A stretch of DNA of 64,000 nucleotides from Polyangiaceae bacterium (GTDB lineage Bacteria; Myxococcota_A; Polyangia; Polyangiales; Polyangiaceae). The position numbers are program-made. Shown piece by piece: positions 1 to 12,000 of this stretch. The DNA lies in assembly GCA_016712345.1 (NCBI GenBank), contig JADJRH010000002.1, positions 328,466-392,465 of the forward strand. Direction: 5' to 3'. How positions within the stretch are numbered: the stretch's first letter is position 1; each line of letters starts with the position of its first letter.

Positions 1-3000
1 TAAGATATGCCTGCGTGACGCTCACATTTTCGTTGGCGGAAACAGTGCGCGATTGCGACCCTGTGATACCTGTATTTTCGTTGTTGGCGGTTTGAGTCAT
101 CAGGTTGTTGGATACCTTTTTTGACTTGCCAAACTGGGCATTCACAAAGACGTGTTCTTTGCCCGCCGCATCGTCGAATCGAATGGAATTGGTGCCTCCA
201 CCGCCCGGAGAACTGTAGCTTTGCAGGGCCGTAACCGTTTTGTTGGCGGGCAGTTGATAGGGAGGTGCAAACTTACCATTATAGGTGCGGCTTACAACGA
301 GCGGCCTGTCGGGATCACCGTCTTCAAAAGCGACCATCACCTCCCATCCAACGCGTGGAATTGCCATGGAGCCCGGCATATTCGCTTGCATGACTCGAAC
401 AGGAAGGGACGATTTATCGTTGGGCTCACCCTCCAAATCCCAGGGAAACTGAACAGTGATCCTTCCCGCGTTGTCGGTATGAATTTCTTCGCCGGAAGCC
501 CCCGTTACAAAGGCACTCTGTATTCCGGCGAGCCGCGGCTTGGGAGTTACATTCGGAAGGCGAAAGGGTAGATCGAGCGGAATGGCTTGGATTTTGGCGA
601 TCACAGGGCCACTTGTTGGAGTCCACTCGTGCGTGACAGCCACCACTACGTATTTACCCGTTGCCTGTGCCGAACCTGAATAGTCGGGGCCCGGTTCAAT
701 TTCAAGCGAAAGGCCGGGGGCCAGGTTGACCGCTGTTGACCGAAATGTGAGAACTACGCTGTCGGCTCGAAGGGCTTCAAGTCGTTTTTTGGCGCGCGCA
801 TCACCAACGCTCGATGTTTTGAATCCACCCGGTGCTTGATACACCTCCACCGTTTTTTCTGTATCGGTGCCCGCTGTCGCGTTTGATTCAAGTTTGAGGG
901 CGGGTTTTTCTTGGTCATAGTCGCGGAGCGTGACTTTACCGGGGCGCCGTTTCGCCCGCAGCTCGGCATCGAATGCGGCGATTGACGCGGGCCCAAGCGC
1001 CGCGGCATCGGTGAGGGGAAGTTTGTCGGTCAGGCCCGGGAGCGCGTCGGAACTGCAATCTTCCACAACAATGATTTCAGACCCGTCGTCGGCGGCTTCA
1101 AACCTGAAAAAAAGACCTTCCTCTTCACACATACGGCGAACGAAAAGAGCGTCATTTTCAGCGTATTGGACAACGTATTGCCGCGCGGCATGCTCCTCCA
1201 TGGTGCGCAGTTTTACGTGATCGTCTGGGTAACCCGCTTCAACGAGAATTTTTTTGACCAAATTGGGAATGGTAATGTCCTGAAAAATGCGGCTCCGCGT
1301 TCGATGCTGAACAACAGCCAAGAGGGGCCGCACGACGGCTTTATAACGCCTCCCCTGGGTTGCTTGAGAAGTTACGAGGGTTGTCCACTGTGTAATCACC
1401 CCGGCGATAGGTCTGTGGGCCGCGCCGTTTTGAATGCCAAGCACGCATGGTTTGCCGAGAAACGACGATGAAGTGAGCGGCTCGGGCGACACGAGCAAAA
1501 GGTCGAACGTGGAAAGTTCACCCAACCTTTCTACCCCGCGAACCTCGCGGCACTCAATCGGCTCGGTTCCATCCACAATGAAGGTAATACCCATGGCCGG
1601 ATCTCACTTTCGAGGGCGCTTGAGTTGAACTGTCTCAAGGTTGGATGAAACGGCTGCTGTGCCGGTCACCGAATAGGCGGGTGCTGTTTTTTCTGAAATG
1701 GGGATGTATTGGGAGCATCCTTTGAGCGCCGTTCCACCTTGTGTACTCAACGTGGTCTGGCCACTGAGAAGACCGGCAACAACGGCGGTCATATTCCCTT
1801 TGAGCTGAACGGGGAGCGGCAAAAGTCCCTCGGCGCTCGGGGGTTCAACGTGTACACTTTGCCAGCGAACAGCGGCGCCGCTTCGAAGGAAATAGAGCGC
1901 GCCTCCGTTTTTTAATACGCCCCAAACAAGCCACTTGTCCGGCCACGGGGGCAACGTGCTCAGTTCTTTGGAGCGCTCATCGTGGGCCGCGAGCGCGCGG
2001 GTAATGGTTGGATCGGCGGTTTTGATACGCATGGACACTCCCTGCCTACCGTAGAGCGCCAATTGATCCATTCGAGCGAGATTCTCTCGAATGAGCAAGC
2101 CCGAAGGATCTTTGGAAAACGGGCTCAATACCCACAAACAATCGCCCAAACTGCCCGCGCCGTAGACGTTTATAAACTCTTTATAATCGCCGGGAAGCGC
2201 GTGGCCTAACATCGCTTCCACGTGACTCCAACGCTCTTCAGAAACCGGTTCTACCCCAGGGGGCGGGGCGAGTTTTTTTGTGAGGTCCGCAAAAGTCATA
2301 CGGCTATTTCCCCTTTCCAGCGGAAGCGCCGTCGGCGGCAAAATTGGGCGGAGGTACCTTTTCAGCCCCCGGGTCAAACGCGCCCCAAGTCAGTTTCCCA
2401 CTCAGGAGAGCGGTTAAAAATTCTGTCATGGTGCCAGGGAATTCTGCGTATCGAAACGACCGCGTTTCCGCCACAACTTTCCACTCATTGGGATTTCCCT
2501 GGGTGAGCCACAGGAGGCCGTCGCCGTTTTCTGTGTGACCCCACGGAAAAACACCTCCGCTTTCTGGAAAGATTGGGTAAGGCATGGAGTTGACCGGGGC
2601 GAGTGGAGGGGGAAGGGTAAACCCGGGAACAGGGTTGTTTCGGCGCGAAGAATGGTAGATGGAGAGCCGAAACCTTACCTTTTCGAGCCACAATTCTGTG
2701 GTAGAAAACGGGTTTAAGACGCGCATGTAGTTGGAAATTGTACCCGAGCCGTAGGTTTGCAAAAACTCCTTGTAATCGGCTGGAAGCGGCGTCCCAATGG
2801 CCGATTCTATAAAGGCCCAATCAGCGGGTTTTGGAGCGTCAACCACCTTTTTGGGAACGGGTAAAACGCTCTGGATCGAGGCCGCAAGGGAGGCCGTTTT
2901 TTTGGTCGTCGCCGTTGTTTTTTTTGCCGCAGGTGTGGCCTTTTTTGCGCTCGCCATGGTTAAAGCACCGTTTCTGTAACAGTGGTTCCACCCACCGGCC

Positions 3001-9000: not shown

Positions 9001-12000
9001 GACTTTGAGGTCGAGCATGGGCTTTTCAAAGTCGTAGTCGTTGAGAACCACTTTTCCGTGGGTGGTTCGCGTTTCTACCCGGGCATCAAAAACGCTTCCA
9101 TCCTTGTCGAGCCCACCTCGATCTCGGAGGGGAAGGGCCGCCGACTTCACGTCGTCAAACCCCGATGCGCCGTCGGTGAAGACAACCTTGTCGGTTTCAC
9201 TCCAGGGTAGATAAAAACTGACCCCTTCTTCTGCCAAAATTCGCCGTACAAACGCGAGGTCACTTTCAAACGATTGAACGCACTGCTTTCGTTTTTCGGG
9301 TGTTCGACTCACGCGATTGTCGACCGAAATGGTATGATCTTTTAGAACCGCGGTGGCGATTTCTACCGCGTCTTGGTCGAGAAAAACGCGGTAGTCGCAT
9401 GTGTCTTCGAGCATGGCGAGGCGCGGTACAATGGTGAGTTTGTACCCGATTCCCACGGCCTCGATTTCATCGACAACACCTTCTACCGAACGTTGCTCGT
9501 CACCCGCGGCCCAAGCCACGGTGGCTGTTTTGGAGATGACGTCGGCGAGGGAAAAGTGGGCGCCTTCCCCTTCAGGATCATGCCGGGCGCAAATGAGGCG
9601 AATGATCGGCGCGTGGCACACGGCTTCGCGCACGGAAAGGCTTGATACCCGCAGTGGAGTATCGATACCGTCAATGGTAAGTGTGACGAGTTGATCGAGC
9701 GCCATACTTCCCTCGCTAACCTACCTTGGTGCCGGATTTGCGGGTGATGTTGCCTTTGAGCTTGGTTGTGCCTTTGGTGGCCTTGAGTGTCCCACCCGCG
9801 AGTTTGAGTGCGCCCGCTTTGAGCGAACCCGCCACGTCGATGGTGATTGTGGGGGCCTCCAAAACAAGCACATCACTCGCCTTCCAGTTGGCGCTCCCAC
9901 CCACCGTGACTGACCCTGAAGCTTTACCCTGGGTAGAAACCGGCCCGCCGGCTTTTTCTTTGGTGGGGCCCGCGGTGACGGCTTTTACCCCTCGAACCGT
10001 GTCACCATACCCACCGAGGCAGGTGATTGATCGAGAGCCGCCTACGGCCTCGGTGTGGGCGGCTGCGACCGATGCGCTGAACCCGAGGCCTCCGGTAAGC
10101 GACGTGGTTCCACCCACGAGTTGAGTGAAAGCACCGTCGACCTTTGTATTGGACTGGTTGCATTGAATGCCGTAGGCGGCGCCGATAAGCTCGTTATACG
10201 CGCCGTCGGCTGCCACGGTGCGGTTGCCCGTGACTTTGATTTGTTCGAGAGCGCCGATGGTTTCCGACCTTCCACCTTTGACAATGACTGTCATGTCGGT
10301 GCCCACGTCAACGGTTTGAGATGCGCTCACAGTGAGCGATTGTGAACCGCCGATACCAAGTTTTAAGGTGAGGGCTACGTCATGCGTTTCGTTGGAGGAG
10401 ATGTTTGACTTGGCGCTCCCACCCACCACAACCGTTTGGTCTTTTGTGGCATGGAGAAACATTTCTTGTCCGCCTCCGCTGTCACCCATTCGCAGTTCGT
10501 TGGTGGTTCCACCCCCGGGAGAAGTGGCCGATTGCAGGGTGGTTGTGGCGGATCCACCGGGTAGACCGTAAGGCACAATCGCCGTGGCGTTGTAGGTTCT
10601 ACCGAGCACAAACGGCCTGTCGGGATTGCCGTCGATATAAGCGATTGGAACTTCCCACCCCACGCGCGGGAGCAACATGGCGCCGGCCATGTTCATTTGA
10701 GTGGTGCGCACCCAATAGGAAGATTTGTCGTCGTGTGCACCTGTGAGATCCCACAAAAAGCGCACTTTTACTCGGCCCAAATCATCCACATGAATTTCTT
10801 CACCCGATGGTCCGGTGGTAACCGCCGGTTCGACCCCTTCCATTTTGGGGTGTATAAAATCGGCGGCGGGCCTGAATGCTCGATCATCGGCCGGAACCAT
10901 GGTGACGCGGTTTTCATACCGAGCATCTCCCGAGTCATTTCGGGAGCCTTCTGAAAAGGTATGTTCCACTCGAACAACAAGGTACCGGCGGTTGACCCAA
11001 GCATCGGCCGCGCCTTCAATATCAAGCACCCGACCCGGAGCAATGCGCACGTTGTCGGCCCTACCCACGGCGCGCTTTTGAAAACGCTGAAGTTGGTCGA
11101 GCCGGACTGACGCTATGAACGCAGTAGGGCCGCTTTTCGTAGCCTTTTCCAGATAGGCGAAACACAAGCCGATCATCGGGTGTACCCGCGCCGGTGAGCA
11201 CCTCTTTCACGATCTCGTCGACTTTTTTGTCGAGGAACGTTTTAAACCCCGAGCGCAGCTTTAGTTGAGCGACCGGGGCGGAGAGGGTAAGTTCGTAATG
11301 GGCGCCGTCGTGACCTTTGCCTTCAAACGCGACGTCGAATGTGACCAACTCAATGAGGCGCATGGACTCTTCTGCCTCATCGGTGATTTCAAGCGTGACA
11401 GGGGCGCACAACAAATCATCGACATTGACGGGCCCGTCCGGGCAGAGAATGCGCACCTTCCACTCGGGCAGTTGATTTACCCCTTCAGTGCCCGACACGC
11501 GAACAACACGGGTTGTCTCAGGAAGCGCCTCGGTGGAAAGATGAAAGCGCGTGTACATAGTGTAACCCCACCGAACGAATACAAGAGTCAGTGTGACGTG
11601 GCAAGCGAAACGTCAGACTCCAAGTGTACCTGCGGCGTTTTGCCACCGCACAGATCCGCCTGCCAATTCCACAATCATAACTGCCTCTGCCGCGGCTACG
11701 TCCGGCCTCGTTCCTCCGATACTGAATGTTTCAACCAACACCTCGAAAATTCGAACGCGGATGGCCAATTCTCTTCTTGCAATTTCAAAAGAGCCATACC
11801 CGAGCCACGACAAATCCCATATCGCGTCGGAAAGCCAATCACCCAATGTTTCTTCAGGTGTATTTGTAGAAGCGCGTTGCGCCTGAATAGACGCCATTCT
11901 TACGGACCATGGTCGAACCGGCGCGGGGTCGTCAAACCCCAACAATCGCAGCAGCGCATGACCGAACCAGGCCAGGGCGGCGCCGGGTGTTCCAAATCGG

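Follow-up and report, generated by a model that had tools for sequence, protein, structure and literature searches.

Auxiliary or orphan clusters belonging to type VI secretion systems (T6SS) are built as vgrG-(adaptor)-PAAR/Rhs-immunity strings sited away from the core T6SS genes, in which a VgrG spike gene precedes an accessory gene, an Rhs effector with a PAAR or PAAR-like domain whose toxin varies past the DPxGL motif, and a cognate immunity gene. They include the Rhs1 and Rhs2 loci of Serratia marcescens, vgrG-rhsA/B of Dickeya dadantii, RhsA of Pseudomonas protegens, the vgrG2-DUF2169-Tde2(DUF4150)-Tdi2 cluster of Agrobacterium and the Aux clusters of Vibrio cholerae. Here we analyse a 64,000-nucleotide (nt) stretch of contig JADJRH010000002.1 (positions 328,466 to 392,465, assembly GCA_016712345.1) from a Polyangiaceae bacterium, which we refer to as the window, and in particular an array of three vgrG genes and their cargo at its low-coordinate end. 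The array shares the gene content of auxiliary clusters and their distance from core genes (known here from the genes of the window), and it is probably an auxiliary, or satellite, T6SS effector island in which the genes of this Polyangiaceae myxobacterium form a single, closely spaced string on the minus strand. The sequence matches to solved T6SS Rhs and VgrG proteins given below speak for this kinship. It differs from the described clusters in uniting three divergent vgrG genes in one conserved array, in its Polyangiaceae host and in an accessory gene that falls outside the DUF4123, DUF1795 and DUF2169 families. Apart from the small protein encoded by this accessory gene, the locus obeys textbook rules of Rhs/PAAR/VgrG delivery and SUKH immunity. 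Its features are the following, in window coordinates, with lengths in amino acids (aa) and fragments of the broken gene given as open reading frames (ORFs):

9716-11558, minus strand: vgrG-A, a pseudogene of the VgrG1 orthologue group (TIGR03361, Phage_GPD, tblastn)
11061-11558, minus strand: N-terminal fragment ORF of vgrG-A (TIGR03361 profile positions 1-139)
9716-11176, minus strand: C-terminal fragment ORF of vgrG-A (TIGR03361 profile positions 250-513)
7534-9705, minus strand: vgrG-B, VgrG2 group, 723 aa, predicted intact T6SS spike (TIGR03361 345 bits, cutoff 186)
6975-7517, minus strand: conserved protein of 180 aa without known family (no Pfam or NCBIfam match)
2960-6967, minus strand: Rhs polymorphic toxin, 1335 aa (RHS_repeat, DUF6531, RHS, Rhs_assc_core)
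6596-6877, minus strand: putative PAAR-like (DUF4150 / Tox-PAAR-like) N-terminal domain, Rhs aa 31-124 (PF13665)
2960-3370, minus strand: Rhs toxin tip, aa 1200-1335 (136 aa), after the DPIGL...DPLGL autoproteolysis motif
~3002-3253, minus strand: predicted NucA-type nuclease domain (Endonuclea_NS_2, PF13930; 42.4 bits, cutoff 27, E 1e-10)
2304-2957, minus strand: SUKH1, 217 aa, starting 2 nt past the Rhs stop (SUKH_6 32.4 bits, cutoff 27; SMI1_KNR4 28.0 bits, cutoff 25.4)
1604-2299, minus strand: SUKH2, 231 aa, starting 4 nt past the SUKH1 stop (SMI1_KNR4 32.8 bits, cutoff 25.4)
<1-1594, minus strand: vgrG-C, VgrG3 group, first 531 codons, running off the window (TIGR03361 380 bits, cutoff 186)

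From vgrG-A to vgrG-C, the genes follow one another on the minus strand with successive gaps of 10, 16, 7, 2, 4 and 9 nt, and from this tight spacing the string looks like a single operon. Scans for promoter-like and for terminator-like sites gave counts not above those in shuffled sequence, and no tRNA gene marking an integration site was found. The initial annotation had called three vgrG genes lying head-to-tail at 9716-11558, 7534-9705 and <1-1594, and translation finds them there. It had recovered the third by hand since the ORF track missed it; vgrG-C is a real gene, with a frame that is open from the ATG at 1594 down to base 2 with zero stops, and it is absent from the ORF list because ORFs that run off the window are unlisted.

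Searches with profile hidden Markov models agree with the VgrG assignment. Judging by their sequences, vgrG-B and vgrG-C encode T6SS-type VgrG/TssI proteins, with TIGR03361 scores of 345 and 380 bits, respectively. The product of vgrG-B comprises Phage_GPD (208 bits), Phage_base_V and Gp5_trimer_C (59 bits) domains followed by a C-terminal extension of about 160 aa past the gp5 trimerisation domain, and it matches VgrG1 of Pseudomonas aeruginosa in the PDB (4MTK, E 1.7e-51). The same three domains, Phage_GPD, the gp5 OB (oligonucleotide/oligosaccharide-binding) domain Phage_base_V and Gp5_trimer_C, are present in vgrG-C, which is partial by the window edge.

The Rhs gene and the two SUKH genes described in the initial annotation are borne out, with the 1335-aa reading frame starting at an ATG at 6967 and the Endonuclea_NS_2 and SUKH families scoring above their cutoffs. 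RHS_repeat matches the Rhs protein in eight stretches (232 bits), accompanied by DUF6531 (63.5 bits), RHS (43.5 bits) and the Rhs-associated core TIGR03696 (64 bits). Among solved T6SS Rhs structures, 8QJA, 7Q97 and 8QJB are matched with E values from 2e-72 (8QJA) to 1e-65, and further matches comprise 8QJB-D, Tse15, Tse5 and RhsA/Tre23. Two DPxGL motifs (DPIGL, aa 1173; DPLGL, aa 1195) precede the toxin tip, in which a DRAH...N...N...E pattern can be read as the predicted catalytic histidine and Asn/Glu metal ligands. SUKH1 and SUKH2 are 29% identical to each other (E 1e-12). The combination of a Tox-NucA domain with RHS repeats, T6SS export and Imm-SUKH immunity has already been catalogued (Zhang et al. 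2012, PMC3482391, Table 2). Our locus resembles these pairs in carrying a NucA-type tip of the HNH/EndoVII fold on RHS repeats together with the predicted T6SS export and SUKH immunity, whereas it departs from them in a very divergent tip, with DRAH in place of GH, and in two tandem SUKH paralogues instead of one.

In the mechanism that we propose as the most likely one from what is established for these protein families, VgrG-B trimers would serve as spike tip for a T6SS with its core genes at another place in the genome, the PAAR-like N terminus of the Rhs protein would cap this trimer, and the small OB-fold protein would probably aid the capping step in the manner of an adaptor. The RHS shell would enclose the 136-aa nuclease, which the aspartyl autoproteolysis site at the DPxGL motif would set free. 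Fired into a neighbouring cell, the NucA-type beta-beta-alpha-metal nuclease would then degrade nucleic acid, while one or both SUKH proteins would shield the producer and its kin. Further along the array, vgrG-C would open a second payload module extending past the window, and vgrG-A would represent the array's conserved first spike gene in a defunct form.

Several points weigh against the interpretation of the array as an auxiliary effector island. The window has no T6SS core gene, so that a working apparatus is assumed, and the PAAR-like match of the Rhs protein (PF13665, 27.3 bits, E 4e-6) lies under the 31-bit cutoff. The toxin tip found no close homologue in a search of 5.8 billion proteins and no solved relative, with the PDB sequence search matching only the Rhs core part, and the nuclease call consists of a single Pfam match plus a motif with AH where GH would be expected. 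Moreover, some toxin loci of this genome are eroding, because vgrG-A is broken and a Tc-toxin gene in the same window is heavily decayed. On the PAAR-like domain, six out of seven orthologous pieces match PF13665, and one match exceeds the cutoff (the L006 piece of a related locus described below, 36.1 bits), and the domain is 44% identical to a separate 103-aa gene of the Sorangium locus L004.

The absence of T6SS core genes in cis, as put forward in the initial annotation, holds for the 11.5-64 kb part of the window, while the other flank falls outside it; only one flank could be checked, as vgrG-C is cut by the window edge. When every ORF of at least 200 aa plus 70 more ORFs of at least 85 aa outside Pfam-assigned genes were scanned with Pfam, this detected no Hcp, TssB/C, TssE-G, TssJ-M, ClpV or stand-alone PAAR at 11.5-64 kb. 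The genes past vgrG3 in syntenic loci are accessory and do not belong to the core. T6SS have been reported in activated-sludge bins classified as Polyangiaceae or as related taxa of Polyangiales (PMC11821767), and from the family assignments and this literature on related bins we infer that the core lies elsewhere in the genome.

The initial annotation had described vgrG-A as split. It does comprise two overlapping ORFs, but the lesion is no simple frameshift: TIGR03361 positions 140-249 are missing and the two halves lie on different frames, with Phage_GPD matched only at profile positions 1-121 and 247-303. In tblastn searches with the 766-aa VgrG1 of L004 and the orthologue of L003, a Polyangiaceae locus, residues 11-142 aligned in one frame and 270-766 in another, and 127 orthologue residues (L004 VgrG1 143-269) correspond to only 31 nt in the window, with the change of frame at a junction around 11113-11145. 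In this one assembly, vgrG-A has thus suffered an out-of-frame internal deletion of about 0.35 kb that removed the middle of the gp27-like hub. We rejected a sequencing frameshift or homopolymer-type error as explanation, given that about 350 bp of coding sequence are gone and that neighbouring genes of 1237-1502 codons are intact. With the middle of its hub domain gone, vgrG-A cannot work, which leaves no more than two potentially functional spike genes. Its gap to vgrG-B measures 10 nt. In four other loci, the vgrG1 stop and the vgrG2 start overlap by 4 nt (L004 7796-7799, L008 7824-7827, L010 5025-5028 and L011 3107-3110), which suggests translational coupling and possibly a mixed spike; the conserved vgrG1-vgrG2 pair may even form an obligately heteromeric spike.

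Related loci were found via VgrG-C and the small protein and stem from Polyangiaceae metagenome-assembled genome (MAG) STL-MYX13 (L003), the complete genome of Sorangium sp. So ce1153 (L004; CP150361, 5.396-5.416 Mb) and metagenome contigs (L005, L008/L009, L010 and L011). They share the gene order vgrG1-vgrG2-small gene-PAAR-like-effector-immunity-vgrG3, with L011 stopping short of vgrG3, and the encoded proteins measure 733-766 aa for complete VgrG1, 716-734 for VgrG2, 156-191 for the small protein and 844-857 for VgrG3. VgrG-B is 45-49% identical to the VgrG2 of L004, L005, L008, L010 and L011 and 40% identical to that of L003, and VgrG-C is 43-50% identical to the 844-857-aa VgrG3 of L003, L004, L008 and L010. 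The PAAR-like domain is encoded by a 103-aa gene of its own in L004, L005, L008, L010 and L011 whereas L003, L006/L007 and the window have it fused to Rhs. When 18 VgrGs were clustered by average linkage, they fell into exactly three groups, conserved across at least six loci, that follow gene position without any mosaic, with 39-99% identity (mean 54%) within groups and 26-37% between them. Because the clustering follows gene position, we regard the three VgrGs as old paralogues kept together as a unit.

The cargo varies on this conserved scaffold. Comparison of the Rhs proteins from the window, L003, L004 and L005 shows tips without relationship to one another once the last DPxGL is passed, and Rhs homology between loci fades within the last 120-140 residues. 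The immunity genes differ as well, with two SUKH genes in the window, a Barstar gene following an RNase tip in L004 and different ones in the remaining loci, and L008 carries a 1032-aa effector without Pfam match on record in place of Rhs. As far as sequence comparison can tell, the variation thus sits in the toxin tip and the immunity genes and not in the vgrGs, which is the classical polymorphic-toxin pattern. Downstream of vgrG3, L004 and L008 share a 336-aa gene and, next to it, one of roughly 550 aa that HEAT_2 matches faintly, after which L004 carries a DUF2169 gene; genes of this family stand at both ends of the L004 locus. The genes flanking the array differ in every locus. In L003, a gene of the phage integrase family (16974-18380) follows vgrG3 at a distance of some 4.5 kb downstream, and L004 has a weakly matching integrase fragment (2427-2765) upstream of its array; the differing flanks and these nearby integrase genes suggest that the array may be mobile or rearranged as one block. 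Related loci show erosion of the array as well: in L005 (5586-7785 and 17206-18663), vgrG1 is split and vgrG3 is truncated at its N terminus, and in L006/L007 (10001-15929), both vgrG1 and vgrG2 are missing upstream of the small gene, the Rhs gene is split and a vgrG remnant of 363 aa occurs.

This erosion, together with the vgrG-A pseudogene and the Tc-toxin gene 25 kb away that is broken into at least six pieces, is what one would expect if the island were a decaying relic that has lost delivery. We consider this unlikely, since vgrG-B, the small gene, Rhs and both SUKH genes are uninterrupted and keep tight operon spacing and vgrG-C is open across all of its 531 visible codons.

Still less probable is the idea, which the initial annotation had favoured, that vgrG paralogues exchange segments and thereby shuffle their downstream payloads, with the array serving as a recombination substrate. 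It would account for cargo flanked by tandem homologous genes and for payloads that vary among related loci. However, the paralogues are only 26-37% identical at the protein level, and the longest DNA shared among the window vgrGs is a 37-nt stretch with 62-78% identity that encodes a conserved PRVGWEV motif; because no longer shared repeat exists among them, there is no substrate for recombination between paralogues. Each VgrG groups with its positional orthologue in all loci with zero mosaics, and Rhs homology is lost past the last DPxGL, the classical site of toxin-tip displacement. These results speak against the recombination claim and for payload exchange at the toxin tip.

An origin of the spikes in an extracellular contractile injection system (eCIS; PVC, Afp or eCIS type) or a prophage tail instead of a T6SS, for which one could cite the VgrG-like spikes found there, a weak CIS_spike_tip similarity (E 0.04) and a resemblance of the small protein to phage and contractile injection system (CIS) central spikes at low Z-scores, is hardly tenable in view of TIGR03361 scores of 345-380 bits, top PDB matches that are T6SS VgrGs, the T6SS hallmarks of a PAAR-like Rhs and of DUF2169 genes at both L004 ends, and zero sheath, tube, baseplate or tail-fibre families across the 64 kb.

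Within the auxiliary T6SS effector island, the small 180-aa protein is the member that does not follow known examples. The initial annotation had listed it as a small unknown gene, and it indeed encodes a protein without family at 6975-7517, yet it is a conserved module member and not filler. Its sequence has a 100% identical counterpart at NCBI, from a Polyangiaceae MAG (locus tag IPK82_21575), and its relatives comprise 53 homologues with E values of at most 6.6e-22 and 291 representatives at 50% clustering, with homologues that are all stand-alone proteins of about 150-200 aa. Neither the protein nor distant members of its family match Pfam or NCBIfam, and eight of the 53 homologues show DUF2345 matches that are all sub-threshold. 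An alignment-based AlphaFold2 model (predicted local distance difference test, pLDDT, 81) shows an OB fold at residues 40-108, formed by a barrel of five strands in which a helix links strands 3 and 4, followed by beta-hairpins at 115-158 and a conserved C-terminal helix.

The model resembles gpV/gp45/gp5-type central spikes of phages and CIS (P1 Gp5 9VZK, Mu gp45 9KI1 and AlgoCIS 7AEF) at low Z, and the protein might act as a gp5/gpV-like trimer stacked on or beside the spike. A Foldseek search against viral models gave a 150-aa "valine-glycine repeat protein" at E 3e-4 with a TM-score of only about 0.3. An hhalign comparison of the small-protein family with the local VgrG alignment was not significant (4% probability), and we do not claim homology to the VgrG beta-helix on account of this result. 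DUF4123/Tap-1, DUF1795/Eag and DUF2169 adaptors were considered and rejected for lack of a family match and because these families do not resemble the OB fold of the model.

In the window and in eight of eight further loci, the small gene lies 0 or 1 gene upstream of the PAAR-like coding region, and it keeps this neighbour even in L006/L007, where vgrG1 and vgrG2 are absent. Because it constantly adjoins the PAAR-like region, even without these spike genes, we infer that its product is likely to be a spike- or PAAR-associated accessory in adaptor position. More speculatively, it could found a new, Pfam-less family of T6SS spike-loading accessories of Polyangiales that connects VgrG2-type spikes with PAAR-like effectors, a proposal that we make tentatively and with some doubt.

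Beyond the array, the 11.5-64 kb part of the window holds genes for the helicases Lhr and HrpA, for metabolism and for large repeat proteins rich in Cys, besides the decayed Tc toxin. This Tc-toxin-like TcB/TcC gene (33979-41813, plus strand) has SpvB, TcdB_toxin_midN/midC and RHS repeat matches spread over at least six ORFs in different frames; long neighbouring genes are intact, and we take it for the probable remains of a second polymorphic-toxin system, now a decayed pseudogene. Shortly downstream of it lie a DUF559 endonuclease-like gene (42564-43175, minus strand) and a gene for a 415-aa protein with a terminal Cys_rich_CPCC domain (43751-44998, plus strand), and both may be remnants of toxin/immunity cargo.

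Among the large repeat proteins, one of 1842 aa (57725-63253, minus strand) consists of tandem Cys-rich modules with 16% Cys and 15% Gly and has no Pfam match; a long antisense ORF at 59108-63493 is a by-product of high GC content at third codon positions. Another, of 1169 aa (53269-56778, plus strand), carries bacterial TSP3 repeats and the DUF4215 Cys-rich repeat and fits a Myxococcota source, DUF4215 being presumably a myxobacterial repeat family. At 12690-14462 (plus strand), a 590-aa Pro/Ala/Ser-rich low-complexity protein without family match contains the acidic run EEDDNENEDDDDDDVDE.

Taken as an auxiliary T6SS effector island, the array adds a clearly annotated example for the poorly studied predatory and social Polyangiaceae of engineered and soil environments. 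For T6SS specialists, the small conserved OB-fold protein in adaptor position and outside the described adaptor families would be a lead to follow. The picture for the family is one of Polyangiaceae that retain a stable three-spike scaffold into which differing toxin/immunity cassettes appear to be slotted.

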